A stretch of DNA of 64,000 bases from Candidatus Promineifilaceae bacterium (GCA_041987425.1 JBHIWP010000002.1:18608-82607); one strand, 5' to 3'. Positions 31,256 to 59,946 are shown, numbered from the stretch's first letter. Numbers and translations: made by a program. The notes: generated from the sequence alone by a model not told the origin.

Positions 31256-32221
31256 GTGAATATTTTTGAATCCCTAAAGCGCCGGATGCTATCCACTTCT
31301 GTTCTATATCTCTCTGATGTACCAGAGTTCATAGCGCTTGTCCCTGGCACAAAAATGCGGGATGTTGCCCCCAGCACTCAGAAAAAGTACAAAGACTGTA
31401 TAGCCAGATTCATAGAGTTTATGGGTGAGGATGTGCCGGTTGAAACCATCGACCGGGAGACCTACGCCGCCTTTCACGAATGGCTTGGCACTCGTGGCAC
31501 ACGTGCCATTACCTGCAACGGCTACCGACGAAGGCAGCGGGCCATCTGGAACCGATTACGGGAGCGGGGCATAGACGTTTGTGATAACCGGGGGATATTT
31601 AAAGAGCAACTAGAACCGGCACAAAAATCTAAGGCCACGATGTACGGTCACATGCAATCTATGCTGCAACTCTCTAATGTGAGAGATACGGCCGTCATCC
31701 TCTACACCGCTTCCGCTGGCTTTCGTCGCCAGACGATCCCGCGCTTACGTGTGGACAATACGCGTATATGGCTATCAGATTCAGGCCAGTACCGTATCGC
31801 CTCAAAAATTCCACAGGAAAAGACAAGCCCGCCGCGTCTTATCATCGGCGACGAAGCCGCCGCGCTTGCCGTTAAATTGTGGTTGGAGATTCGGGAGTTC
31901 CAGGATTCGCCCTGGCTGTTTTACGAGATGCACAACGGCGACCAAATGAGCGAGTTCAACGTGTCGGACATTTTCGGACGCCTGCGCCGCGCTGCCAATA
32001 TTCCCGCATGGTCTAACGCTTCTGCACATGGCCTGCGTCACCGTTTTGCTCAGGAGCAACTAAACGAACACGATCAGAAAATAGTTGCTCAGTGGATGGG
32101 AATTAGCGTTGAAACTATGTTGAAGGTTTACGCACACCGTGACGAGGAATCATTAATCACGGCCCGGCTAGGGGATAAAGACTTTCCCAAAGAACTACTA
32201 AATGGTAATGGCAAATCTTGA
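31256..32221 (+). CDS. int: Tyrosine recombinase / phage integrase
   Basis: C-terminal HGLRHRFA ... VYAHRD (R-H-R-Y family) and an N-terminal SAM-like domain. Lies next to tRNA sequence. The start is uncertain (GTG at 31256, or the internal ATG beginning MLSTS). Confidence 0.8.
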   Translation: MNIFESLKRRMLSTSVLYLSDVPEFIALVPGTKMRDVAPSTQKKYKDCIARFIEFMGEDVPVETIDRETYAAFHEWLGTRGTRAITCNGYRRRQRAIWNRLRERGIDVCDNRGIFKEQLEPAQKSKATMYGHMQSMLQLSNVRDTAVILYTASAGFRRQTIPRLRVDNTRIWLSDSGQYRIASKIPQEKTSPPRLIIGDEAAALAVKLWLEIREFQDSPWLFYEMHNGDQMSEFNVSDIFGRLRRAANIPAWSNASAHGLRHRFAQEQLNEHDQKIVAQWMGISVETMLKVYAHRDEESLITARLGDKDFPKELLNGNGKS

Positions 32222-32366: not shown

Positions 32367-32438
32367 GGGCCTGTAGCTCAACGGCAGAGCAGTCGGCTCA
32401 TAACCGATCGGTTTCAGGTTCGAATCCTGGCAGGCCCA
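32367..32438 (+). tRNA. tRNA with CAU anticodon (elongator Met type, or Ile2)
   Basis: Hand-folded cloverleaf of 72 nt. Acceptor GGGCCTG/CAGGCCC, D stem GCTC/GAGC, anticodon loop CTCATAA, T arm TCAGG-TTCGAAT-CCTGG. G1-C72 is paired, so it is not an initiator. Confidence 0.85.
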
Positions 32439-40088: not shown

Positions 40089-40370
40089 CTATCGCTGCCG
40101 CTGCTCAAGCTCTTTTTGAATGTCGCTCCAGGAGAGGTCGCGCGATACTAGCAAAACGAGCATATGGTAGAGCAGATCGGCCGTTTCTTCCACAATGCGC
40201 TGATTTCCCTGGCCCTTGGCAGCCAATATTACTTCCACCGCTTCTTCACCAATTTTTTTGATGATCTCATCCTCACCGGTGGTGAGCAGGCTGGCAGTAT
40301 AGCTGTTTGGGGTCGGGTTTTGCTTGCGTTCTTGTAGGGTGGCGAATAGCGCTTCTATAAAATCACTCAT
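40089..40370 (-). CDS. hisE: Phosphoribosyl-ATP pyrophosphatase
   Basis: 93 aa of MazG-like HisE type (SYTASLL...KIGEEAVEV...EETADLLYH). Confidence 0.85.
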   Translation of the reverse strand: MSDFIEALFATLQERKQNPTPNSYTASLLTTGEDEIIKKIGEEAVEVILAAKGQGNQRIVEETADLLYHMLVLLVSRDLSWSDIQKELEQRQR

Positions 40371-40420
40371 TGGCTTACTCTCTCAAGGTGGTTCTGTAAT
40401 TGTGAAAACGAGACTGGATC

Positions 40421-40457
40421 TTGGCGATTGGAAAAGTCTTTAATCTCCAATCTCCAA
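40421..40457. repeat. Heptamer-repeat hairpin (unit TTGGAGA) spanning the hisI stop codon
   Basis: TTGGCGATTGGAAAAG tc TTTAATCTCCAATCTCCAA. The last hisI codons (LEIGD) and the stop lie inside the right arm. Confidence 0.6.
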
Positions 40458-40766
40458 TTGCCTATGAAAACAGCTCATCTCCCCCGTGTGGCAGGCCGGT
40501 CCAGCAGGCTCCACCTGCAGCAGCAGGGTGTCGCCGTCGCAGTCTACGTGGATGTCCTTGACGCGCTGCACGTTGCCGGAGGTACCGCCCTTGTGCCACA
40601 GCTTCTGGCGGCTGCGGCTCCAAAAGTGGGCCTCGCCCGTTTCCAGCGTCAGCCGTAATGCATCGGCGTTCATCCAGGCCACCATCAATATTTCGTGGGT
40701 GGTGTGATGTTGGAGAACGGCCGTAATCAGACCCTTCTCATCAAATTTTAGGCCGTTGAATAACAT
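40440..40766 (-). CDS. hisI: Phosphoribosyl-AMP cyclohydrolase
   Basis: [17 protein letters not shown] and DCDGDTLL motifs. Confidence 0.9.
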
Positions 40767-40804
40767 GCTTCACTTAGAAATTGTTTCTATTCCTTTAAAT
40801 TATT

Positions 40805-41173
40805 TTATATGTTTGGTTGCTGATACCTTTGAATTTCTAAAACATCCCCATTTCGATCTGTCCACTTTTTTGGTTGCAGAGTAATATTTTCAATCATTCC
40901 TGCTGCATACTGTGCCCAGTTGTAAAGTATGCCACCTTGCTTCTCAGCAAGCCAACCTTGTTGCCAAAATTCCTCGAAAAACTCTAAGAACTGTTGTGCA
41001 TCAATGAGATATTCATCTTCGCCGTTATCATCTTGTAGACCACTAGAACATTCAAGAAATTGAAGCTCGATTAGGTGGGTAATTTTGTAGAATAACTTTG
41101 CTCGCCCATTTGACATGCTGGCCGCGAAACGCTTATTTCCATCTTTTAACAAAGCTATAAATATTTTTCCCAT
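40805..41173 (-). CDS. Orphan protein inserted between hisF and hisI (A/T-rich)
   Basis: 122-aa ORF with no motif recognised. Its composition is clearly more A/T-rich than the flanking his genes. Confidence 0.5.
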   Translation of the reverse strand: MGKIFIALLKDGNKRFAASMSNGRAKLFYKITHLIELQFLECSSGLQDDNGEDEYLIDAQQFLEFFEEFWQQGWLAEKQGGILYNWAQYAAGMIENITLQPKKWTDRNGDVLEIQRYQQPNI

Positions 41174-41203
41174 GATTTAATATCGACTAGTTTCCATATT
41201 TAG

Positions 41204-42031
41204 CTATTGTCTAACTGGGATATTTTGCAGCGCCAGGTAATCCTTCACTTCGGCGATGGTGAGCTGTTTGTAGTGAAACAGCGAAGCGGCGAGAGCCGCA
41301 TCCGCGCCGCCTTCCGTCAATGCCTGGGCAAAGTGGTGCAGCGTGCCAGCACCGCCGGAGGCAATGACGGGGATGTTGACCGCGTCGGCAATGGCACGAG
41401 TGAGTTCGATGTCATAGCCTTCTTGCGTGCCGTCCCCGTCCATGCTGGTGAGCAAAATCTCGCCCGCGCCGCGCCGCTCGGCCTCCTTGGCCCATTCGAC
41501 AGCGTCCAGCCCGGTGGGGGTGCGGCCGCCGCTGACGTACACTTCCCAATGGTTAATGGTTAATGGTAAATTGTTAATGCTTAATTGCTGTTCATTCAAC
41601 TGATCACTGCTTACCGAAGCCCGCTCACCAACCCGTCGCGCGTCAATTGCCACCACCACCGCCTGGCTGCCAAAGGCTTCGGCGCCCTGGCTGATGATCT
41701 CCGGGTTGCGCACGGCCGCAGAGTTGATGCTGATCTTGTCTGCCCCGGCGCGCAAAATGCCGCGCATGTCTTCCACCGTGCGGATGCCGCCCCCGATGGT
41801 AAAGGGAATGAACACCTGCTCCGCCACGGCGCGCGCCAGCTCCATCACCGTGTTGCGCGCCTCATGGGTGGCCGTGATGTCTAGAAAAACCAGCTCATCG
41901 GCCCCGGCTTGATCATAAAGCCTGGCCTGCTCCACCGGATCGCCCGCGTCGCGCAGCTCAACAAAGTTGATGCCTTTGACCACACGGCCGTCTTTCACGT
42001 CTAAGCAGGGAATAATGCGTTTGGCTAACAT
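41204..42031 (-). CDS. hisF: Imidazole glycerol phosphate synthase, cyclase subunit
   Basis: [37 protein letters not shown]. Carries a 21-aa repeat-derived insert. Confidence 0.9.
41549..41611 (-). repeat. Nine tandem heptamers (63 nt) in frame inside hisF
   Basis: The coding strand reads CAGTGAT CAGTTGA ATGAACA GCAATTA AGCATTA ACAATTT ACCATTA ACCATTA ACCATTG, encoding [21 protein letters not shown]. Confidence 0.75.
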
Positions 42032-42044
42032 AAAAGCTCTCTTG

Positions 42045-42785
42045 TCAGTCGGCGCGCACGGTATTGAACGCTTCTTGCAGGTCTAAACGGCCGTCATAAA
42101 TGGCACGTCCGGTAATCACCCCAACCACACCATGTTCCGCCTGGGCGTGACAGCGGCGAATGTCTTCCATTGAGGCCACGCCCCCGGAAGCGATGACCTG
42201 CAAGCCCGTCACCTGGCTCAGCTGCACCGTCGCCTGCACATCTACACCGCTTAACACGCCATCACGACCAATGTCGGTGTAGATAATGGTTTTGACCCCG
42301 CGCTCTTTCATATCCTTGCCCAGATCAACGGGATTCATGGCCGTATCGCGCTGCCAGCCTCTCGTCTTAACACGGCCGTTGCGCGCATCTATACCCACCA
42401 ATATTTTACTCTTGCCAAACTTTTCCACGGCTTTGCTAACCAGGTCTGGCTTTTCGATGGCCACCGTGCCCAAAATGACCCGGTTAGCGCCAGCGTCCAG
42501 GGCTCGCGCCACATCATCCAGGCTGCGGACGCCGCCGCCAAACTGCACCTTCACGTCTAGCTGGGCGATGGCAGGCAACGCAGCCCAGTTAGCTGCACTG
42601 GCTTCGTCCAGAGCGCCGTCCAGGTTGACCACGTGCAGCCACCTGGCTCCGGCGTCAACCCATTTTTGGGCCATTTTGACGGGATTATTGCCAAACACGG
42701 TTTCTTTTTCAGGATCGCCATGCTCCAGCCGCACGACACGGCCGTTGCGTAAATCAATAGCGGGGAATATCGTGAACTTACTCAA
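42045..42785 (-). CDS. hisA: ProFAR isomerase
   Basis: [34 protein letters not shown]. Confidence 0.9.
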
Positions 42786-42803
42786 TGGTACCTCTTGGGA
42801 TGA

Positions 42804-42862
42804 GGTAATTGTGTAATTAAGCGATTGGGTAATTACCCAGTTACTCAGTTACCCAATTACAC
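42804..42862. repeat. Octamer-period repeat hairpin in the hisA-hisH spacer
   Basis: GTAATTGT GTAATTAA GCGATTGG GTAATTAC CCAGTTAC TCAGTTAC CCAATTAC, with a central palindrome GGGTAATTACCC. It overlaps the hisH stop. Confidence 0.6.
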
Positions 42863-43528
42863 TTTTTCTACAAAGTTTCTCAAAATCGTTAAACCTACAC
42901 TCTGGCTCTTTTCCGGGTGGAATTGCAGACCATAGATATTATCCTTAGCTACCACAGATGCAAAGGGAAAACCATAGTCAGTCCAGGCAAGAACGGCCGT
43001 TGCATCGTCCGCATCGCAGTAGTAAGAATGGACAAAGTAAGCGTAGTCGCCCGTTTTTACGCCATTCAGCAGCGGATTGTCCCAGGCGGGTTCCAACTGG
43101 TTCCAGCCCATGTGGGGAACTTTTAAATGGTTAATGGTTAATTGTGAATGGTGAATGGTTAACGGATTGGCTTCATTACCCATTAGCCCTTTCTCTGGAA
43201 ACCGCACCACCTTGCCCGCCAGTAAATCCAGGCCCTCGTGGACGCCCATTTCATGCCCTTCCGTGAACATGAGCTGCATTCCGACACAGATGCCCAAAAA
43301 AGGAACGCCGCGCTGCACGGCTTCGTGAATGGCTTCGGGCAGGTTGTGCCGTCGCAGGCCATCCATGCCAGAGCCAAAAGCGCCCACGCCGGGCAGCACC
43401 AGCTTGTCGGCACGGCGCACTACCTCCGCGTCGTCCGTCAGGTGCACCTCGGCCCCAATATACTCAAATGCCTTCTGCGCCGAGCGAATGTTGCTGGCGC
43501 CGTAGTCGATCATGGTGATTTTGGTCAT
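42857..43528 (-). CDS. hisH: Imidazole glycerol phosphate synthase, glutaminase subunit
   Basis: GVGAFG, ICVGMQL, PHMGWN, HSYY, FHPEKS. Carries a repeat-derived insert before PHMGWN. Confidence 0.9.
   Translation of the reverse strand: MTKITMIDYGASNIRSAQKAFEYIGAEVHLTDDAEVVRRADKLVLPGVGAFGSGMDGLRRHNLPEAIHEAVQRGVPFLGICVGMQLMFTEGHEMGVHEGLDLLAGKVVRFPEKGLMGNEANPLTIHHSQLTINHLKVPHMGWNQLEPAWDNPLLNGVKTGDYAYFVHSYYCDADDATAVLAWTDYGFPFASVVAKDNIYGLQFHPEKSQSVGLTILRNFVEKV
43121..43162 (-). repeat. Six tandem heptamers (42 nt, unit TTAACCA) in frame inside hisH
   Basis: The coding strand reads TTAACCA TTCACCA TTCACAA TTAACCA TTAACCA TTTAAAA, encoding LTIHHSQLTINHLK. Confidence 0.75.
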
Positions 43529-43533
43529 ATTTT

Positions 43534-43617
43534 GGTAATCCGTTAGCGGTTATCGGTATTCAGTGAATCAGTATTCAGTGAGTCAGTTACTGATTACCGA
43601 CCACTGACCACTGGTTA
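43534..43617. repeat. Twelve tandem heptamers forming an imperfect dyad. They fill the hisH-hisB spacer
   Basis: GGTAATC CGTTAGC GGTTATC GGTATTC AGTGAAT CAGTATT CAGTGAG TCAGTTA CTGATTA CCGACCA CTGACCA CTGGTTA. Confidence 0.65.
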
Positions 43618-44211
43618 CTCCGTCAGCGTTCCCTTCGTCGAAGCCACGTCCAGCCGTCGTGGGTCAATGGCTACGGCCGTTCTCAGCGCCCTGGCAAATG
43701 CCTTAAACAGGGCCTCGGCCTGATGGTGATCGTTACGGCCGTATTCAATGCGGGCGTGCAGGTTCATTCTGGCGTGAATGGCTACCGATTCAAAGAAGTG
43801 CTGCACTAGATCAGTGGGCATCTGGCCGATGGCTGGCGTGTGCCAGGTACCGTGGAAGACCGTGTACGGCCGTCCGCCCAAATCAATCGCCACAAAGCCC
43901 AGCGCCTCGTCCATCGGCACGTAGGCATGCCCCACGCGGGTGATGCCCTTGCGGTCGCCTAAAGCACTGTTGATGGCTTGCCCGAAAACAATGCCTACGT
44001 CCTCAATGGTGTGGTGCGTGTCGATGTGCAGGTCGCCCGTGGCCACCACCGTGAGATCAAACAGTCCGTGGATGGAAACGGCCGTAAGCATATGGTCAAA
44101 AAAGCCAACGGCCGTACTGATGTCGTGCTGCCCTCTGCCTTCCAAATTGATGGAGACAGAAATGTCTGTTTCGCTGGTTTGCCGATGAATGCTTGCTGTT
44201 CGTGTCATCAT
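43615..44211 (-). CDS. hisB: Imidazoleglycerol-phosphate dehydratase
   Basis: [26 protein letters not shown], and [11 protein letters not shown] are typical IGPD motifs. Confidence 0.9.
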
Positions 44212-44234
44212 GAATCGTTTTGTTGAAGTTTATA

Positions 44235-44325
44235 CAAAGGAACGAAGATAGAAAGGAACCAAGAGGATTAGCAACTAATTGATTATCTTACTTCTTTGTT
44301 TCTTCCGTCCCTTTGTCTCTTCGTC
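44235..44325. repeat. Purine-rich octamer-period hairpin in the hisB-hisC spacer
   Basis: The left arm AAAGGAAC GAAGATAG AAAGGAAC CAAGAGGA faces a pyrimidine-rich right arm, CTTCTTTGTTTCTTCCGTCCCTTTGTCTCTTCGT. Confidence 0.55.
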
Positions 44326-44332
44326 TAATTAA

Positions 44333-45481
44333 TTACTGCTCTTCTAAACGACGCAGTTCGGCAAGCAACTGGTCTGTCTCCTCTGGCCGTCCGGCGCTGA
44401 TGCGGATGCAGTTGTCTACGCCGGGCTTATTAAAGTAACGCACCAGAATGCCTTCTTTTTCCAGATCAAGTTTGAGTGCCTGCGCACTGCGGCCAATGAC
44501 CCGGCATAATATAAAGTTTGAACGGCTGGGGAGTGGGTTCAGGTAGCTAATTGTACCCAATTTTGTAAAAAGGCGCTCTCTTTCTGCAACCAAAAGCTGC
44601 ACTTTCTCATGCAGCCACGCCTGATCGGCCAGTGAGGCCAGCGCCGCCAGCGAAGCGGCGACGTTAATGTTGTACGGCTGCTTGATTTTCCACAGGTGCG
44701 GCAGCAGCCATTCCGGGAACGCGCCGTACCCCACGCGCAGCCCGGCCAGCCCGGCCAGCTTGCTAAACGTCCGCAGCACCGCCAAATTGTCATATTCCAA
44801 GGTCCAGTGAATGCGGCTGGCTGAATTAAAACTGACCGTGGAGTTTTCCTCTTCTTTTTCTCTGCGTTCTCCGCGGTTCAAATCAAAATCGACGTACGCT
44901 TCGTCAAGAACAACGAGGACGGGTAGTTGGAGCAAACGTCGTAGGTCGGCGTCATTGATGGTGCTGCCGTCCGGATTGTTGGGCGAGCAGATGAAGAGGA
45001 CTTTGGCGGTGGGGTGCTTGGCTACGGCCGTTTCAATGGCGTCAACGTCCAGGCTGAAATCTTCTTTGCGCCACACCTGCACGTAACGGCCGCCGTTAAC
45101 GGCCGTGCTGAACGGATACATGCCAAACGACGGTGGGCAATCTATCACCACGTCGTCTGGCGAGAGCACCACGCGCAGCACCAGGTCGATCAGCTCATCG
45201 GCGCCCATGCCCGCCAGCAGCCGCGCCTTGGGCATCTGCACATAGCTGCTGAGCGCATCGCGCAGTTCGTTGGATTCGGGGTCGGGGTAGATGTGGAAGA
45301 AACGGCCGTTGCGTAAAGCCTCCAAAGCCTTCGGCGACGGCCCATAAGGATTCTCGTTGGCGTCCAACTTCACAATTTCCTCCGGCGCCCGCCCCAGCCG
45401 TGCCGACAGCACCTCAAACGGCACAATTGGAATGTAAGGCTCCATCTCAGCAATATCAGGTCGTACAAATCTGTTGGTCAT
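44333..45481 (-). CDS. hisC: Histidinol-phosphate aminotransferase
   Basis: KLDANENPYGPSP, DEAYVDF, and LRTFSKLAGLAGLRVGY (PLP lysine). Carries a repeat-derived insert between DEAY and RTFSK. Confidence 0.9.
   Translation of the reverse strand: MTNRFVRPDIAEMEPYIPIVPFEVLSARLGRAPEEIVKLDANENPYGPSPKALEALRNGRFFHIYPDPESNELRDALSSYVQMPKARLLAGMGADELIDLVLRVVLSPDDVVIDCPPSFGMYPFSTAVNGGRYVQVWRKEDFSLDVDAIETAVAKHPTAKVLFICSPNNPDGSTINDADLRRLLQLPVLVVLDEAYVDFDLNRGERREKEEENSTVSFNSASRIHWTLEYDNLAVLRTFSKLAGLAGLRVGYGAFPEWLLPHLWKIKQPYNINVAASLAALASLADQAWLHEKVQLLVAERERLFTKLGTISYLNPLPSRSNFILCRVIGRSAQALKLDLEKEGILVRYFNKPGVDNCIRISAGRPEETDQLLAELRRLEEQ
44843..44878 (-). repeat. 36-nt repeat-derived segment in frame inside hisC
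   Basis: The coding strand AACCGCGGAGAACGCAGAGAAAAAGAAGAGGAAAAC encodes NRGERREKEEEN. Its first 20 nt match the inverted repeats flanking the GxxExxY gene. Confidence 0.65.
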
Positions 45482-45501
45482 AGTTAGTTGCTTCCTTATT
45501 A

Positions 45502-45532
45502 TTAACCGCGGAGAGCGCGGAGAACGCTGAGA
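45502..45532. repeat. Left inverted repeat flanking the GxxExxY gene
   Basis: TTAACCGCGGAGAGCGCGGAGAACGCTGAGA, with a 9-nt periodic unit GGAGAGCGC. Confidence 0.65.
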
Positions 45533-45540
45533 TTTGGCTG

Positions 45541-45936
45541 TTAGAGGTTGAGAGCCACACGCTTGATGCCACCAACTTTTAGTCGGCGCACGTTGAAATT
45601 TAGTAGCAACCCTAGCTTTAGATTTGCCAGCTTTAAGTAGGACATTAATTGTGCCTGGTGTATGGCTTCAAATTTTTTGATAGCTTTTAGCTCCACAACA
45701 ACAAGATTTTCTACTACAAAGTCCGCTCTATAAGCATTCTCCACAGGAAGTTGTTTGTAGATTAACGGGATGGTTCTTTCGCGCTCATATTCAATGTTTC
45801 GCAATGCCATCTCATGAGCCAAACAGGCCTGATAAGCTGACTCTAGCAAGCCAGGACCGAGATGTTTATGTACTTCAATGGCCGCCCCGATAATCTTTCC
45901 CGTAATCTTGTCTTCTTCTCGCATTGGCTCTCTCAT
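45541..45936 (-). CDS. GxxExxY family protein (PD-(D/E)XK-like, PDDEXK_3)
   Basis: KIIGAAIEVHKHLGPGLLESAYQACLAHEM contains the GxxExxY signature. The start was set at the first ATG (45936), because the ORF-track start is a TTG. Confidence 0.75.
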   Translation of the reverse strand: MREPMREEDKITGKIIGAAIEVHKHLGPGLLESAYQACLAHEMALRNIEYERERTIPLIYKQLPVENAYRADFVVENLVVVELKAIKKFEAIHQAQLMSYLKLANLKLGLLLNFNVRRLKVGGIKRVALNL

Positions 45937-45942
45937 ATTCAA

Positions 45943-45977
45943 TCCTCCGCGCTATCTCTGCGCTCTCTGCGGTTAAA
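45943..45977. repeat. Right inverted repeat flanking the GxxExxY gene
   Basis: Its reverse complement TTAACCGCAGAGAGCGCAGAGATAGCGCGGAGGA matches the left repeat at 20 of the first 22 positions. The hisD stop lies in its outer TTAA. Confidence 0.65.
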
Positions 45978-47295
45978 TCCTCTTCCTTGCAGCGTTGGCA
46001 TGGGCGTCGAGGGCTTCCGCCTGGGCGATGCGGGCGGCGGCGGCGCTGAGTTGGGCAGACGTGGCGTCGTCTAGCTGCACGATGCTGCTGATTTTGACGA
46101 AATCAAGCACGTTGAGCGGTGAGGCAAAGCGGGCGGTGCCGTTGGTGGGCATCACGTGGCTGGGACCGGCCACATAGTCCCCCAACACTTCAAAGCTGCG
46201 CTCGCCAATGAACAGGCCGCCTGCGTTAGGGATTTTATCTGCATAGGCCGCCGGGTTTTGCGTGGCGATGCAGGTGTGTTCGGCGGCAAAGTCGCTGGCA
46301 AGCTGGCAGGCTTCGTCCAAATCGGAGGTTAGCACAATGCCGCCCCGATTAGCCAGCGACACGGCGATCACCTCACTGCGGGTTAGCGATTCCATCTGGC
46401 GGGCAATCTCTACCTGCACGGCCTCGGCCAGCGAATTGGAGGGCGTAAAGAGGATGGCGGTCGCCAGAACGTCGTGTTCGGCCTGTGCCAGCATGTCGGC
46501 GGCAACCCAGGCGGCATCGGCCGTTTCGTCGGCAACGACCGCGGTTTCGGTTGGGCCATACAGGCCGTCGATACCCACAATGCCGTAGACCTGCCGCTTG
46601 GCCAGGGTGGTAAAGAGGTTGCCTGGACCCACAATTTTGTCCACGCGGGGCACGCTTTCCGTGCCAAAGGCCAGCGCGGCGATGGCCTGAGCTCCGCCCA
46701 GCGTATAAATTGTGTCGATGCCAGCAATGGCCGCTGCGGCCAGGATCACGTCCGGGATACGGCCATCTTCCCGTCCTGGCGGGGTTGCCACCACAATCTC
46801 CGGCACACCTGCCACCCGCGCCGGAATTACCGACATGAGCAGCGAAGACGGCAGCGGGGCCGTGCCGCCGGGCACGTAGACACCCACGCGCTGAATCGGC
46901 GTGACGCGCTGGCCGAGAAAGCCGCCCATTTCAGTGGTTTGCCAGTTGGGCAGCGGCTGCCGCTGATGGAAGTCGGCAATGCGATACGCGGCCAGTTCTA
47001 GGGCGTGTTTTAGCGCTGGTTCAATACGCGTGAGAGCCGCAGAAATCTCATCCTTATCCACTCGCAAACTTGCCACTTTCACACCATCTAGCGTTTCCGT
47101 CCAGCGGCGCAGGGCGGCATCGCCTCTCTGGCGCACGTCACGCAAAATGGTGGAGACGGCCGTTTCTGGCGTAGCGCCCTCACCAAACAGTTGGTTTAAG
47201 CTGGCCTGTAATGCCGGGGGCACGTCAGGCTCCAGGGACGTTTCTCGCCGCAGGATGGATTTTTGAGCATCGGGGATTGTGTATATTCTTATCAT
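45973..47295 (-). CDS. hisD: Histidinol dehydrogenase
   Basis: Typical HisD throughout (GGAQAIAALAFGTE, AQAEHD, GDYVAGPSHVMPT). The start was moved to the ATG at 47295 (MIRIYT), because the longer ORF-track N-terminus is encoded by a repeat hairpin. Confidence 0.9.
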   Translation of the reverse strand: MIRIYTIPDAQKSILRRETSLEPDVPPALQASLNQLFGEGATPETAVSTILRDVRQRGDAALRRWTETLDGVKVASLRVDKDEISAALTRIEPALKHALELAAYRIADFHQRQPLPNWQTTEMGGFLGQRVTPIQRVGVYVPGGTAPLPSSLLMSVIPARVAGVPEIVVATPPGREDGRIPDVILAAAAIAGIDTIYTLGGAQAIAALAFGTESVPRVDKIVGPGNLFTTLAKRQVYGIVGIDGLYGPTETAVVADETADAAWVAADMLAQAEHDVLATAILFTPSNSLAEAVQVEIARQMESLTRSEVIAVSLANRGGIVLTSDLDEACQLASDFAAEHTCIATQNPAAYADKIPNAGGLFIGERSFEVLGDYVAGPSHVMPTNGTARFASPLNVLDFVKISSIVQLDDATSAQLSAAAARIAQAEALDAHANAARKRI

Positions 47296-47306
47296 GGTCT
47301 TTTGGG

Positions 47307-47377
47307 AGGAAGTGAAGAGTGAGAAGTGAAAAGTAAAAAGAACCCACTTATCACTTTTCACTTTTTACTTATCACTC
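47307..47377. repeat. Heptamer-repeat hairpin (unit AAGTGA[A/G]) filling the hisG-hisD spacer
   Basis: GAAGTGA AGAGTGA GAAGTGA AAAGTAA AAAG aaccca CTTATCA CTTTTCA CTTTTTA CTTATCA CTC. The arms pair over about 30 bp by hand and overlap the hisG stop. Confidence 0.65.
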
Positions 47378-48390
47378 TGTAAAGCTGTTAGCATGGCGCG
47401 GTACCGCTCCGGTTCTTCTTCAAAAATGTAGGTGCAGGGTGAGACGACCACACCGCTGCCGCCAATGGCTCGTAGTTCAGCAATGGCCTGGAACAAATTT
47501 GCTTTTTGCACAACAATATTAACGGCGAACCAGTTGGGGTCGCCAGGCGTGTGGTGCCGGGCGACGACCGGGGCAATGGTGGGGCCGCGCAGGCCGCGCA
47601 GGTGAGGCTGGCTCAGCATCTTTTTGGCAATATCTTCGGGAGAATCCCCGCGTACGTTTGTGACAACCAGGAAGGAACTTTCGGCGCGCAGGTAGGCTTC
47701 GATGTATTCAATGAGCTGGCGGGCCACGGTGAGCACGTCCGGACGCGTTTTCAGCGTTTCTTTGTTGGCGATCAGGCAGGCTTGCGAGCGCAAGATGAGA
47801 CCATCTTCAATCGGGCGCAAGTGATTGTCGCGCAGGGTGATGCCGGAGGAGACCAAATCGGAGATGACGTCGGCATAGCCGATTGTGGGGGCAATTTCCA
47901 GCGTGCCCTCTACGCTAATTAGCTTGACGGGGGCCACACCGTGCTGTTCCAGGAAAGCACCGGTGACTTTGGGGAACTTAGTCGCCACGCGTAGGGCACG
48001 GCCGTTTTCTCCCAGTGCCTCAGCCCAGGCCGCCAGATCGCCCATCGTGCGGGCTGGCTGATCTTCCGGGATAGCCAGGTTGAGGGTGCAGGGGCCAAAG
48101 CCAAGCGCGTCGTGGAGGGTGAGGATGGATTGCGAACGGCCGTAAGCCTTTTCAGCCAGGATATCCAGGCCCGTAATACCAAAATCAATGCTTCCTTGCC
48201 GTACCCCGGTAACAATATCGCCTGGCCGCTGAAACATCACCGTAAGCTGAGGCAGGCTAGGAATGATGGCTTCATACTGGCGGGGATTGGGTCTAAAAAT
48301 CTTTAATCCACACGCTTCTAAAAAATCAAACGCGTCTTTGTGCAAGGCCCCCTTACTAGGCAGGGCCAGCCGGATATCTGATCGTAGCAT
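47365..48390 (-). CDS. hisG: ATP phosphoribosyltransferase (long form with C-terminal regulatory domain)
   Basis: LRLALPSKG, DIVTGVRQGSIDFGITG, DLVSSGITLRDN. The start was moved to the ATG at 48390, preceded by GAAGGAG. The ORF-track extension is repeat-encoded. Confidence 0.9.
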   Translation of the reverse strand: MLRSDIRLALPSKGALHKDAFDFLEACGLKIFRPNPRQYEAIIPSLPQLTVMFQRPGDIVTGVRQGSIDFGITGLDILAEKAYGRSQSILTLHDALGFGPCTLNLAIPEDQPARTMGDLAAWAEALGENGRALRVATKFPKVTGAFLEQHGVAPVKLISVEGTLEIAPTIGYADVISDLVSSGITLRDNHLRPIEDGLILRSQACLIANKETLKTRPDVLTVARQLIEYIEAYLRAESSFLVVTNVRGDSPEDIAKKMLSQPHLRGLRGPTIAPVVARHHTPGDPNWFAVNIVVQKANLFQAIAELRAIGGSGVVVSPCTYIFEEEPERYRAMLTALQSDK

Positions 48391-48410
48391 ACAATACTCC
48401 TTCAAGATAG

Positions 48411-48455
48411 TTGAACGCAGAGGCGCAGAGAACGTAAACCGCAAAATCTCTGCCT
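48411..48455. repeat. GCGCAGAGA-type repeat element in the hisG 5' UTR
   Basis: GAACGCAGAGGCGCAGAGAACGTAAACCGCAAAATCTCTGCC uses the same unit type as the GxxExxY flanks and the hisC insert. Confidence 0.5.
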
Positions 48456-48500
48456 TAAGTTTATCTTATACGGGAAGGGTTTCACCCGTTATTACAGAAT

Positions 48501-48537
48501 ACAAACAAAAACACCCTCCTCTGGCTTGAGGAGGGTG
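48501..48537 (-). terminator. Intrinsic terminator of the his leader (attenuator)
   Basis: The minus strand reads CACCCTCCTC aagcca GAGGAGGGTG followed by TTTTTGTTTGT. It lies 34 nt after the leader-peptide stop and about 110 nt before the hisG ATG. Confidence 0.7.
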
Positions 48538-48570
48538 CTAAAATGCATCCCAGTTAGAATTAAAGCTGCC

Positions 48571-48651
48571 TCAACCCAAAGTAAACCATCGCCAACTTGC
48601 ATGGTGTGCGTGATGATGCTTCAGATGGGTTGCAGCAGGAATGTTTTTCAT
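48571..48651 (-). CDS. His-rich leader peptide of the his operon (26 aa)
   Basis: Hand translation gives MKNIPAATHLKHHHAHHASWRWFTLG, with six His including HHHAHH. It is followed by the terminator and is absent from the ORF track. Confidence 0.6.
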   Translation of the reverse strand: MKNIPAATHLKHHHAHHASWRWFTLG

Positions 48652-48670
48652 GACGCTAAAAGTCTAGCAC

Positions 48671-48699
48671 ATACTACGTGGTGTGCAATCTATTTCCAA
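48671..48699 (-). promoter_or_regulatory. Candidate his operon promoter TTGGAA-17-TAGTAT
   Basis: Minus-strand reading: -35 at 48699-48694 and -10 at 48676-48671, about 20 nt upstream of the leader ATG. Confidence 0.3.
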
Positions 48700-48808
48700 T
48701 ATCCCTTCTGTAAAGAGCCTTTTAACAGTTTGTTATCAATTCGATTTATGCCCTGATTGATGTGTATAATGTGCGAAAAATTCTTGCTAAATTTAGGTAG
48801 GTTGCACC

Positions 48809-55910: not shown

Positions 55911-56037
55911 AATACTGCTGCCTGGCTCCTAACCTCGAACGATTAAGTGATGAATTTGCACAAGGATAGTGCCCAAAAATATAGATGGCAGCACTTACAT
56001 ATGCGCTTACGAGAAGATGTTTTGGAGGGGTGAAACG

Positions 56038-56084
56038 TGATGCGTGAAGCGCAAGAGATGAGGTCTGTTACGCTTCACGCATCA
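56038..56084 (-). repeat. 14-bp perfect hairpin built of GTGAAGC-type heptamers, after the multihaem cytochrome gene
   Basis: TGATGCGTGAAGCG at 56038-56051 and CGCTTCACGCATCA at 56071-56084. Preceded by GTGAAAC GTGATGC GTGAAGC phasing. No U-tract. Confidence 0.55.
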
Positions 56085-56095
56085 GGCAGGAATTG

Positions 56096-57970
56096 TTATC
56101 TATGAATGAAAGGGAGGTAGGTTTCTAGCCCAATAGCTTTTTGAGCCATGATGGTTGGTTGAGAACGGCCGTTTTCCGCCCACAGATCATACAAAATCTG
56201 GCCGTTGCTGCTGGCGTCGCCAAAAAAAGGACTCTCATTGCGTAAAAACTCAATGTACTCGCGTGAAGCCACCTGATGCACCAGCCGCACTATCACAACT
56301 TCGGGTTCGGCAGGCAGGGAGTAGGTGACCGTGTCCCAGTACTGACCATCAGCGTAGCGGCTGGGGTCTGGCGCGCCGTTGGTGTATGGCGCAGCCCCAG
56401 CCGCGGCAAAGGCAGCAAACTCGTAGCCACGCGGTGGGATGCGGTTGTCGTGCAAGATCTCGTTGTTCAGAATGAAGTGGAACGATTCGCCTGCGGGAAC
56501 GCCAAGCTGAGCCGCCAGGTCCGCCGAGATGCCGTGCTTGGCTTCGTATAGCTGAAGGTCACCGTCTTCAGTGAGAAGGCCAGTGGCTGCATCGTATGCG
56601 CCGGAGCTATAAATGAGGCTGCCGGCGGCGTCGTATGCTTCTACCTGCAGCCACATGCGTCGGCCTTCAATGTAGCCAGTGGGCAGCTTATGGCCGCTGT
56701 TGTTGGTCACCGTCACCACGAGCTGTGTGCCCGTCAGGGAAATGTCTAGCTCCGCGGCATTTTGCAGCATGGCCGTGGCCCGGTCAATACCGGCGTTAAG
56801 TGCCTCCAGCCGCTCCTCGGCGTAGGGGCCGGTGGTGAAGGTTGCGCTGAACACGGGATGCTGCGGAATAATTTGCGGCACCCAGTTGTTGGCGCCAGTG
56901 AGATCATGTAGGGGCAGATCACTGCGCTCTGGAACGCTGGTGGCATTGCCAAAGAATGCCGCGCCAACGCCGGTGACATCCTGCATGTGGCAGTCCTGGC
57001 AGGTGGAGACGCTGCTTTTGTTGCCGCCAAACTGCGGCAGGGCAACACCTTGCGGCGTGTTGAAGTCACTGAGCCGCCACTCGCTGTAGGTGCGCTCAAC
57101 GGGGAACATGCTGGTGGTGTCGGTGAACGGCTGGTTGACGTCGTTAAGAACGTAGCTTTGGCTGGGCTCATCCCAGGTGAGCAGCGGGTTGCTGATGTCG
57201 TGGCAGCTGCCGCACAGGGCAGCATCCTGGTGGAAGGGCGATTCAAGGGTATCCAGGGCGCCTGCGGCCGGGTTGTGGGGGTCGAAGCCGTTGTCGGTAA
57301 CGACGTCAAAGGGGCCGCGCCGGTAATCGGCCGTATCCACGATGAGGCTAGCGTTGCCGGGAATGGTTACCGGGCTGGTGATGGCGGCCAATACGGTCAG
57401 GTCGCGGTCGGGGTTTTCGCTGCTGTACAGCGGATCGACCATGCGGTGACACACTTCGCACTGCACGCCCTCCTGGTCAACGGCCGTCATTGCCGAGCCG
57501 TCTGTGGTGGAAGAACGGCCGTCTAGCCAACCGCGCGGCAAGTGACAGCGCAGGCAAAACTCCCCAGCAAAGGCGGCATCGGCATTGGCAATATCTAGCG
57601 CGGCATAAAATACGGGGTCGCGGCCCGATTGAGCCATCATGCTGCCCGCCCAGCCGGTCCACGGCTCATAATCAGCAGGCTGGTTTACCTGGCTGCTGTA
57701 GTTGGCGTGGCAGCCAATGCACTGCTCTGGCGAGTCGATGTCGAAGGTACCAGTGTGCAACGGCTGCGTGCCGGGCTGGAAAAAGTCTAGCATGGTGGTA
57801 GTAGAAAGCGTGGGGGTAGGCCCGGTTCCATTAGGACTCAATTGTGGATGATTTGCAGGCAGTGCGGCCTGTGCGGCGGGCGTGCTGGTTTGTTTTAGCG
57901 TGGCAAAAAGGGCGGCAATGATGGCGAGCGTGAGGCTGGTGGAAAAGAAGATAATTAATATTTTACGCAT
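56096..57970 (-). CDS. Secreted multihaem c-type cytochrome (five CxxCH) with a C-terminal YLPFIHR tail
   Basis: Signal peptide. CIGCH, CLRCH, CEVCH, CGSCH, CQDCH. Confidence 0.75.
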   Translation of the reverse strand: MRKILIIFFSTSLTLAIIAALFATLKQTSTPAAQAALPANHPQLSPNGTGPTPTLSTTTMLDFFQPGTQPLHTGTFDIDSPEQCIGCHANYSSQVNQPADYEPWTGWAGSMMAQSGRDPVFYAALDIANADAAFAGEFCLRCHLPRGWLDGRSSTTDGSAMTAVDQEGVQCEVCHRMVDPLYSSENPDRDLTVLAAITSPVTIPGNASLIVDTADYRRGPFDVVTDNGFDPHNPAAGALDTLESPFHQDAALCGSCHDISNPLLTWDEPSQSYVLNDVNQPFTDTTSMFPVERTYSEWRLSDFNTPQGVALPQFGGNKSSVSTCQDCHMQDVTGVGAAFFGNATSVPERSDLPLHDLTGANNWVPQIIPQHPVFSATFTTGPYAEERLEALNAGIDRATAMLQNAAELDISLTGTQLVVTVTNNSGHKLPTGYIEGRRMWLQVEAYDAAGSLIYSSGAYDAATGLLTEDGDLQLYEAKHGISADLAAQLGVPAGESFHFILNNEILHDNRIPPRGYEFAAFAAAGAAPYTNGAPDPSRYADGQYWDTVTYSLPAEPEVVIVRLVHQVASREYIEFLRNESPFFGDASSNGQILYDLWAENGRSQPTIMAQKAIGLETYLPFIHR

Positions 57971-59849: not shown

Positions 59850-59871
59850 GTTTCGTTTAAAAGTAATGGAC

Positions 59872-59946
59872 GCAGATTCTCCTGATTGACCTGATTTTGA
59901 TCGCTTTTCAATCAGATCTATCAGGAGAATCTGCGTTTTATTTTTT
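59872..59946. terminator. Bidirectional intrinsic terminator between convergent genes
   Basis: 15-bp perfect arms GCAGATTCTCCTGAT at 59872-59886 and ATCAGGAGAATCTGC at 59920-59934. GTTTTATTTTTT follows on the plus strand. An inner CTGATT/AATCAG pairing is also present. Confidence 0.65.

Follow-up and report, generated by a model that had tools for sequence, protein, structure and literature searches.

The stretch analysed here, 64,000 nucleotides (nt) from a Candidatus Promineifilaceae bacterium (GCA_041987425.1) and called the window throughout, was placed by a HisB scan of a genome collection in Chloroflexota, in the Ardenticatenaceae / Ca. Leptofilum group. Its histidine biosynthesis (his) operon, whose spacers hold palindromes built from short tandem units, is the subject of this report, together with the small GxxExxY gene that one such palindrome encloses. 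The operon lies on the minus strand in the order hisG-hisD-(GxxExxY)-hisC-hisB-hisH-hisA-hisF-(orf122)-hisI-hisE, which gives 10 junctions. The genes are as follows.

47365-48390, minus strand, hisG (NCBIfam)
45973-47295, minus strand, hisD (NCBIfam)
45541-45936, minus strand, GxxExxY gene (NCBIfam)
44333-45481, minus strand, hisC (NCBIfam)
43615-44211, minus strand, hisB (NCBIfam)
42857-43528, minus strand, hisH (NCBIfam)
42045-42785, minus strand, hisA (NCBIfam)
41204-42031, minus strand, hisF (NCBIfam)
40805-41173, minus strand, orf122 (gene call)
40440-40766, minus strand, hisI (NCBIfam)
40089-40370, minus strand, hisE (NCBIfam)

Dinucleotide shuffles served as controls, 1000 for periodicity and 300 for inverted repeats, and RNA fold z-scores were calculated. 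Because low-score Tandem Repeats Finder (TRF) over the whole window was too noisy as a detector, it was replaced by a hairpin-plus-period detector. The palindromes are listed below with the interval tested, the period, the shuffle counts for periodicity and for inverted repeat, and the fold z-score.

40421-40457, palindrome with TTGGAGA heptamer arms, hisI>hisE; the right arm contributes the last hisI codons and the TAA stop (40440-40442). Tested 40415-40462: period 7, 0/1000, 1/300, z -2.8
42805-42862, palindrome with 8-nt GTAATTNN arms, hisH>hisA; the hisH stop codon (42857-42859) lies inside. Tested 42800-42865: period 8, 0/1000, 0/300, z -4.0
43529-43617, palindrome of CAGTGAN/CGGTAAT-type heptamers, filling the hisB>hisH spacer. 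Tested 43529-43617: period 7, 0/1000, 2/300, z -3.0
44232-44328, palindrome with purine-rich 8-nt ACAAAGGA/ACGAAGAG arms, hisC>hisB. Tested 44230-44328: period 8, 0/1000, 1/300, z -2.3
47307-47378, palindrome of the hisG>hisD junction, arms of AAGTGAA heptamers; the last hisG codons and the stop fall within the left arm (operon sense). Tested 47305-47380: period 7, 0/1000, 0/300, z -4.0
56030-56085, palindrome with GTGAAGC/GTGATGC heptamer arms outside the his operon, about 10 nt past the stop of the gene at 56096-57970. Tested 56028-56087: period 7, 0/1000, 0/300, z -9.3

The original prediction, made from the sequence of the window, had placed hairpins of degenerate tandem units at 40421-40457, 42804-42862, 43534-43617, 44235-44325 and 47307-47377, and all five are borne out, with no shuffle in 1000 for the period and at most 2 in 300 for the inverted repeat. 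The recurrence of the same architecture outside the operon at 56031-56084 (GTGAAGC) is equally well supported, and the periodicity is statistically supported at six loci. The hairpins of the window have stabilities of -18 to -32 kcal/mol; in the hisG>hisD element, the arms 47311-47340 and 47347-47376 are 30 nt each and 80% complementary. Several elements start at or contain the stop codon of the 5' gene, and TAACTGA is present in two of them (42833-42860 and 43580-43600). The view that nearly every his spacer is filled by such a hairpin has to be narrowed: tandem-unit arms occupy 7 of the 10 junctions, but two of these seven hold the arms of a gene cassette described below rather than hairpins, and the hisA>hisF, hisF>orf122 and orf122>hisI junctions have no hairpin. 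Elsewhere in the window, between convergent genes at 59869-59944, a long hairpin followed by a T-run is a bidirectional-terminator candidate, and its arms (CTGATTGAC / CTGATTTTGA) form a loose 9-nt repeat.

Two loci with 9-nt units, 45502-45532 and 45943-45977, had been taken for separate hairpins. Neither folds locally (45500-45535, period 9, 1/1000 shuffles; 45943-45977, 53/1000), and each is the complement of the other: together, about 410 nt apart, they form a single inverted repeat around the 396-nt GxxExxY gene. A further locus reported at 48411-48455 does not stand as a periodic hairpin and reads as a decayed copy of the same family. These features are as follows.

45943-45976, minus strand, upstream cassette arm, TTAACC followed by CGCAGAGAG/CGCAGAGAT/CGCGGAGGA units; overlaps the hisD stop codon (45973-45975)
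45541-45936, minus strand, GxxExxY / PDDEXK_3 gene (PF13366, TIGR04256), 131 amino acids (aa)
45501-45531, minus strand, downstream cassette arm (...CTCAGCGTTCTCCGCGCTCTCCGCGGTTAA, operon strand)
48411-48455, apparent decayed 9-nt-family copy between the his leader terminator and hisG, units CGCAGAGG / CGCAGAGAA by direct reading. Tested 48408-48458: period 501/1000, z -0.95

The innermost unit of the upstream arm contributes GGAGGA, 7 nt before the GxxExxY ATG. The encoded protein, to which library protein P0001 is 100% identical, conserves D72, E82 and K84 of the PD-(D/E)XK motif. The PDDEXK_3 / GxxExxY family is very large (34,123 clusters at 50% identity, E <= 1e-3), and PF13366 has been classed as 'function unknown' (Steczkiewicz 2012, PMC3424549). 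By sequence the protein has no match among solved structures, its AlphaFold2 (AF2) model is too poor for a fold search (predicted local distance difference test score, pLDDT, 60.6), and PADLOC gives only a weak Cas4-core match. Some library proteins of 240-295 aa (P0121-P0133 and others) carry two GxxExxY domains and may be read-through products or tandem-cassette fusions.

The association of this gene with such arms extends far beyond the operon. When 20 aligned homologues were used to scan metagenomes, 80 loci were recovered at 47-61% identity and with GC contents of 31-67%; the 76 with enough flank, together with the related loci L083, L085, L088 and L089 (numbers with L denote the compared loci), made up the 80 genes scored. 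For 56 of these 80 genes, pairing of the two 160-nt flanks gave a best inverted-repeat score of at least 13, the shuffled maxima being 8-12.5, and all 56 have one architecture, TT[C/A]ACC + (CRCNRAG + 1-3 nt)n, with CRCNRAG units spaced at 8-9 nt. All 36 anchored cassettes share an invariant terminus, A-C-C-R-C-N-R-A-G. Arms of one cassette are 88% complementary, arms taken from different cassettes 59% (0/2000 permutations). The neighbours of GxxExxY genes are predominantly co-oriented (56:8 on the upstream and 46:18 on the downstream side), and the gaps measure about 50 nt. Gene-less hairpins with the termini of the 9-nt family cluster with the gene: 34 were found in 251 kb around GxxExxY genes vs 1 in 1065 kb of control loci, and locus L096 has four such gene-less copies in tandem, each about 135 nt long, whose loop is conserved. 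Non-9-nt hairpins are also more frequent there (9 in 251 kb around GxxExxY vs 7 in 1065 kb), a comparison that taxonomy may confound. Distant PDDEXK_3 homologues (31-41% identity) on viral contigs have 45-56-nt arms of different, A/T-rich 12-13-nt tandem units. The arms between which GxxExxY genes were seen always belonged to the CRCNRAG class or, around distant homologues, to another fixed class; none of the genes lay in an arbitrary hairpin. The suggestion that the elements form a family recognised by structure and not by sequence fails for the 9-nt type: because it combines the conserved ACCRCNRAG termini with a cognate gene across many taxa, it is a sequence-defined family.

Target-site duplication was looked for in 42 cassettes, where the direct identity of the flanks equalled that of the re-paired control for k = 2-10, and the inverted complementarity runs on into locus-specific flanks. 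At L105, L109, L125, L128 and other GxxExxY loci, for example, the inverted repeat continues past TT[C/A]ACC into A/T-rich sequence that differs by locus (ATAAATTTTTTAACC... / ...GGTTAAAAAATTTAT), with no direct duplication.

For the comparison with related genomes, the nearest relatives are L001-L003, which are metagenome-assembled genomes (MAGs) of Ardenticatenaceae / Ca. Leptofilum with HisB identities of 86-89%. An exact look-up of the window's HisB gave no record. The his operon is syntenic in L001-L011, L083, L085 and L089, whose proteins are on average about 87% identical to those of the window in L001 and L085, 83-84% in L002 and L003, 70-75% in L004-L006, L083 and L089, and 60-67% in L007-L011. 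The GxxExxY gene occupies the hisD-hisC junction in the window, L001, L006, L083, L085 and L089, with protein identities of 60-88%; since the position is shared across genera at these identities, the cassette is old at this site. The gene has been lost in L002-L005, and the hisD>hisC spacer of L003, TTAACCGCGGTTAA, is the remnant expected if the cassette was deleted between its terminal CCGCGG repeats. Ca. Flexifilum (L088) has a paralogue in a carotenoid operon; the arms around it, perfect and 31 nt long, are of the same type (GTTAACCGCAGAGAACGCAAAGAACGCAGAG), and neighbouring L088 spacers have GGACTGA and ACAGTGA hairpins. Copies at orthologous sites share a genome-specific unit variant (CAAAG in L083, CACAGAG in L003, and CGGAG/CAGAG for both the window and L001). 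Concerted evolution among copies is indicated by L083 and L001, where the downstream cassette arm is closer to the hairpin within hisC than to its own partner arm.

Comparison of the same spacers in relatives, which had been proposed as a check, was informative for the other unit types as well. Among the closest genomes, orthologous junctions keep the unit type and differ in length, and both arms change in step.

hisG>hisD: window 69 nt, L001 41 nt, L002 75 nt, L085 about 66 nt
hisH>hisA: window 71 nt, L001 55 nt, L002 103 nt
hisB>hisH: window 86 nt, L001 63 nt, L002 84 nt, L003 95 nt

The hisB>hisH elements are orthologous in L001, L002, L003, L083 and L085 (59-95 nt), and in the more distant relatives L007 and L009-L011 the junctions measure -10 to +20 nt and are hairpin-free. 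The same unit types also appear at non-orthologous places. TTGGAGA is found at hisI>hisE (window, L001), hisA>hisF (L002) and hisC>hisB (L003, L004, L005), inside hisF (L003, L085) and at the hisG end (L005), with further junctions of L002-L005 and L085 noted for the type; across genomes it occurs at five junctions or gene ends and in the HisF interior, and its dimers number 20 in 178 kb of clade sequence vs 5 in 1065 kb elsewhere. The ACAAAGGA type occupies the same hisC>hisB junction in L085 and two further places in L004, the GTGAAGC/GTGATGC type is at hisA>hisF in L083, and CGCRGAGNN 9-mers and the CGGTAAT/CAGTGAA types occur at other junctions and protein loops of other genomes. Conversely, one junction can hold different families: at hisH>hisA, three genomes have GTAATTNN, two have the 9-nt type and one has a GCGTRAT type, L003 has nothing, and L005, L006 and L083 have no spacer owing to overlapping genes or an extra open reading frame (ORF). 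Periodic hairpins occupy 13 of 70 co-directional spacers of close relatives vs 6 of 260 in other taxa (shuffles, 0-1), and at stringent thresholds their density is 9.2 per 100 kb in the clade vs 0.7 per 100 kb elsewhere. One outlier is a 98-nt hairpin with AGTGGAR heptamer arms immediately after hisB in a Gemmiger sp. MAG of Firmicutes (L055, 10597-10694), so tandem-unit palindromes are not confined to Chloroflexota. Another hairpin, of about 90 nt in Ca. Flexifilum (L088, 5206-5296), consists nearly entirely of C-runs and G-runs and could be an assembly artefact or a homopolymer palindrome.

These results bear on the proposal that each locus has its own unit, produced by a local generative process. 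The first half fails: since the same types are found at non-orthologous junctions and in protein loops of related genomes, the unit is not private to a locus. The elements are, as predicted, not copies of one fixed-sequence miniature inverted-repeat transposable element (MITE); they fall into several recurring unit families. The second half is partly supported, in that unit number differs between relatives and thus points to a local slippage component, which is the only part of the process that finds support. In its pure form, each array would be grown by slippage at its own locus and its inverted copy made by intrastrand template switching, with neither mobility nor a partner in trans. This would suit the orthologous copies listed above, whose two arms change in unit number together, the occurrence of direct-only arrays, and palindromy that reaches locus-specific flanks; heptamers are also the commonest long simple repeats of bacteria and are ascribed to slippage, according to Mrazek (2007) as cited in PMC4679880. 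A purely local origin is nevertheless unlikely in our judgement, because the same units stand at unrelated sites of different genomes, the ACCRCNRAG terminus is invariant and the 9-nt family keeps its cognate gene across loci of 31-67% GC, gene-less copies cluster with that gene, and the four L096 copies with their conserved loop are typical of a dispersed element.

The elements are not restricted to spacers. TRF and protein alignments revealed low-GC insertions of variable length, in frame, in loops of HisF, HisH and HisC, which are missing in more distant relatives and which the original prediction had overlooked. In the window they are as follows.

41549-41623, minus strand, in-frame low-GC insertion in a HisF loop (residues 137-161), a periodic AACCATT x5 array with no hairpin
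43124-43192, minus strand, low-GC stretch inserted in frame in a HisH loop (residues 113-135), derived from an AATGGTT/AACCATT hairpin of which the AACCATT arm is kept and the 5' arm is lost in part
44835-44878, small gene-less 9-nt-family hairpin (AACCGCGGAGAACGCAGAG...CTCCACGGT), in frame in hisC (residues about 201-222, RGERREKEEE...)

The AATGGTT/AACCATT hairpin of the HisH loop is complete in L002 and L003. The HisF loop has the TTGGAGA hairpin in L003 and L085 and CAGTGAA x6 in L004, and the hisC copy is orthologous in L001, L003, L083, L085 and L089 and missing in L004, L006, L007 and L010. One and the same loop thus carries different families depending on the genome, with at least three types in each of the HisF and HisH loops.

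A function in the his mRNA was one of two offered for the hairpins, the other being selfish DNA. As host-selected RNA elements they would serve as 3' stabilisers, RNase III sites or modulators of translational coupling that set differential his expression, and several facts would agree with this: all lie within one transcription unit starting at a His-leader attenuator, they are stable, the same junctions keep hairpins in relatives of about 84-87% protein identity though sequence and unit number shift, and the GGAGGA of the upstream arm before the GxxExxY start would be sequestered in the long stem. REPs (repetitive extragenic palindromic sequences), the closest analogue, are likewise reported after coding regions, and an RNA-level role for them is plausible (PMC3733652). 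However, the sense strand has no advantage. When 30 gene-less hairpins were oriented by transcription, the sense strand folded better in 12 and the antisense strand in 17, G:U pairs numbered 45 in sense vs 63 in antisense, and cassette arms have 57 G:T and 45 A:C mismatches; neither folding energy nor G:U vs A:C usage shows the asymmetry of an RNA signature. The same elements also stand within coding sequence, the family occupying one junction is swapped between genomes, the L007 and L009-L011 junctions are tight and hairpin-free, and single junctions are hairpin-less in L003, L005 and L006. No spacer hairpin was reported by a terminator scan, whose only strong same-strand hit in the operon was the leader terminator at 48539-48510, and Rfam gave only a tRNA at gathering score, a permissive search adding two chance microRNA-model hits far below the cut-offs. 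The idea of mRNA processing or stability has accordingly gained no support, and we assign a low probability to selected RNA elements.

A related explanation appears to us very unlikely: the arrays would be bound by a host regulator, such as the translational or RNA-binding protein that has been proposed in the case of TAACTGA repeats, and their inversion would be incidental. Iterated short motifs with fixed spacing near start and stop codons, several units with GGAG-like or TAACTGA-like cores, and the regulatory role proposed for heptamer arrays in Beggiatoaceae and Nostoc (PMC4679880; bioRxiv 10.1101/2022.06.06.494920) would favour it. On the other side, one operon holds many different units, the complementary arm is always present in the window copies apart from the direct array in hisF, the elements also occupy coding loops, the family at a given site turns over frequently, and no candidate binding protein was identified.

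Selfish DNA is the better of the two functional options, and we consider that the spacer hairpins are probably palindromic selfish repeats of a few dispersed families, which work like the REP system and its RAYT (REP-associated tyrosine transposase) with a different protein. The anatomy, the recurrence across sites and genomes, the association of gene and arms, the lack of target-site duplication and the symmetry of the strands are the observations on which we base this reading. What defines each family would be a short unit, with 2-6 iterations in one arm and their complement in the other, and the family would persist where insertion is tolerated, namely at or over the stop codons that separate co-transcribed genes and, in frame, within enzyme surface loops; its unit number would drift by slippage or apical deletion. 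The 9-nt family would form the inverted ends of a cassette with a small PD-(D/E)XK-type GxxExxY gene, and gene-less 9-nt hairpins would be non-autonomous or unoccupied counterparts. The iterated units are putative recognition sites of the predicted nuclease, which may either home into the palindrome centre or mobilise the ends, and comparable partners of the other unit families may be encoded elsewhere in the genome. Arms and copies could be kept alike by gene conversion or by a recognition requirement that they share. The innermost upstream unit may double as the GxxExxY ribosome-binding site and the long stem could couple its translation to hisD, but any effect on the his mRNA would be a secondary by-product.

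Several points weigh against this reading. The seven non-9-nt families have no partner gene in about 260 kb of clade sequence, and an enclosed-gene search over 16 loci, for inverted repeats 100-2500 nt apart, found a gene between arms for the 9-nt family only, so the status of the others as elements depends on their recurrence. No recent gain was seen: all polymorphism observed is loss, and the his cassette is old and orthologous. The lack of target-site duplication, with palindromy extending into locus-specific flanks, makes a poor fit to classical cut-and-paste transposition, and the direct-only arrays (8 x GGTAATTG in L089, at a junction other than hisH>hisA, and 7 x ACAGTGR in L004) suggest pure slippage. 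The nuclease activity of GxxExxY is predicted from sequence, the AF2 model being poor, and the terminus subtype (ACC-A vs ACC-G) does not follow protein identity (151/2000, not significant).

As a tentative extension, which we regard as possible rather than probable, PDDEXK_3 / GxxExxY proteins in general may be nucleases of unrecognised, widespread palindromic cassettes, whose ends are iterated recognition units that vary by subfamily; the gene-less hairpins of Ardenticatenales, including the his types, would be unoccupied targets or non-autonomous progeny. The cassettes provide a first genomic context for the very large family PF13366, for which the term GxxExxY is rare in the literature searched, and from this context comes the hypothesis of a nuclease that recognises iterated units in palindromic arms. 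On the reading of the elements as selfish repeats, a partnership of palindrome and flanked gene like that of REP and RAYT would exist with a different enzyme class, and the long-puzzling short-period tandem arrays of filamentous bacteria would be tied to a concrete element type. Annotation is also affected, through false C-terminal extensions, supplied stop codons and low-complexity loops in housekeeping enzymes.

Other features around the operon deserve mention. The His leader-peptide attenuator lies 5' of hisG at 48510-48714 on the minus strand, with a promoter-like site at 48714..48687, a leader ORF at 48651..48571 (minus; MKNIPAATHLKHHHAHHASWRWFTLG*) and a terminator at 48539..48510 formed by a G+C-rich hairpin and a T-run. 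The His-rich leader peptide (..HHHAHH..W..LG*) is kept 5' of hisG in 12 related loci, and the Rfam His_leader model does not match the window leader. The product of orf122, between hisF and hisI (40805-41173, minus), has 122 aa and its gene a GC content of about 0.36; the product matched nothing in Pfam, NCBIfam or PADLOC, the related loci have no homologue, and the gene is not flanked by repeats. In relatives, the hisF-hisI junction has other inserts, including low-GC stretches of about 950 nt and a 326-aa ORF. Hairpin-bearing his junctions of L001-L006, L083, L085 and L089 are also repeatedly broken by unrelated genes, such as those for a haloacid dehalogenase (HAD) hydrolase and a glyoxalase (hisA-hisF), DUF429 (hisI-hisE), toxin-antitoxin and HEPN/nucleotidyltransferase-like pairs and a metallophosphoesterase, most of which are lost in the window. 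The first half of the window (1-32440) is a prophage beside tRNA-Met (32367-32438), with genes for tape measure, major head, portal, large terminase, DNA methyltransferase, a DnaC-like loader and an integrase (31256-32221); this part (1-32 kb) has no tandem-unit hairpins, and the elements are rare elsewhere in the window. The palindromic octamer ACGGCCGT, with the extended consensus GGAAACGGCCGTTTCC, has 92 copies in the 64 kb (37 in the prophage part), was also noted for L001-L006, L010, L083, L085 and L089, with the variant TTCGGCCGAA in L011, and resembles the highly iterated palindrome (HIP1) of cyanobacteria.

Among known systems, short tandemly repeated repetitive (STRR) sequences were named as the nearest analogue. 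Their units are CCCCAGT (STRR1), TTGGTCA (STRR2) and CAACAGT (STRR3), and small dispersed repeats of Nostoc were reportedly treated by Elhai et al. in 2008. Heptamer arrays are a fair analogue, but the arms here are inverted and the STRR1-3 units are not enriched, their dimers being absent from the window (0) and no commoner in relatives (1-4 in 114 kb) than in control taxa. A direct heptamer array of the STRR kind was rejected, since the spacer units of the window are of 7, 8 or 9 nt in two complementary arms and only the in-frame hisF copy is direct. With STRR and TAACTGA arrays (MacGregor 2015, PMC4679880) the elements share 7-nt intergenic tandem units near start or stop codons, strain indels in 7-nt steps and filamentous hosts. 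TAACTGA repeats are known from Beggiatoaceae, Cyanobacteria and Bacteroidetes, and BOGUAY has 169 direct sets vs 1 indirect (PMC4679880). These arrays are direct and belong to other phyla, whereas here two complementary arms are the rule; the TAACTGA type, one direct heptamer a few nt 5' of starts, was also set aside, because several units occur here in inverted pairs that abut stops at least as often as starts.

Rickettsia palindromic elements (RPEs), reportedly described by Ogata et al. in 2000, are likewise palindromic selfish DNA in frame at permissive gene sites, translated as extra peptide loops. They are Rickettsia-specific, fixed-sequence families of 100-150 bp with no tandem-unit arms, and we know of no cognate gene for them. 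MITEs were rejected, in that inverted repeats are present and target-site duplication has no support in the 42 cassettes. A MITE is also a non-coding deletion derivative of an autonomous element with a transposase gene; the gene-less copies here have the termini and units of the gene-bearing cassette and are clustered near it. Free-standing homing endonuclease genes have in common a small nuclease gene in the middle of a palindromic 'site', no target-site duplication and uninterrupted copies elsewhere. A palindromic 'site' split by the gene, the lack of duplication and intact D..ExK residues would be compatible with homing, in which a nuclease cuts its uninterrupted site and repair copies the gene into it, whereas the his copy has been stationary since before the genera split and its arms are iterated units rather than a single site.

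Because the 9-nt ends carry the GxxExxY gene and gene-less hairpins would be their counterparts, we liken the system most closely to REP sequences, their doublets (REPINs) and RAYT (Di Nocera 2013, PMC3733652; Bertels & Rainey 2011, PMC3116915), with another protein. Like REPs, the elements are short palindromes, apparently in many copies, mostly after coding regions, between co-directional or convergent genes and occasionally inside genes, with a small gene flanked by repeats or long inverted repeats and no target-site duplication. A REP is an imperfect palindrome with an unpaired GTAG or CGTC tag at one end (PMC3733652); direct reading found no such tag in any element of the window or its relatives, the 9-nt family ending in TT[C/A]ACC. 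The window-type elements are 37-100 nt and lie after stop codons, the REP criterion being 20-40 bp, high copy number and a mostly extragenic location, and their arms differ in consisting of 2-6 tandem 7-9-nt units of variable number, with several families in one operon. The gene flanked by REPs encodes a Y1 (IS200/IS605-like) transposase, whereas the gene flanked here encodes a PD-(D/E)XK-type PDDEXK_3 protein.

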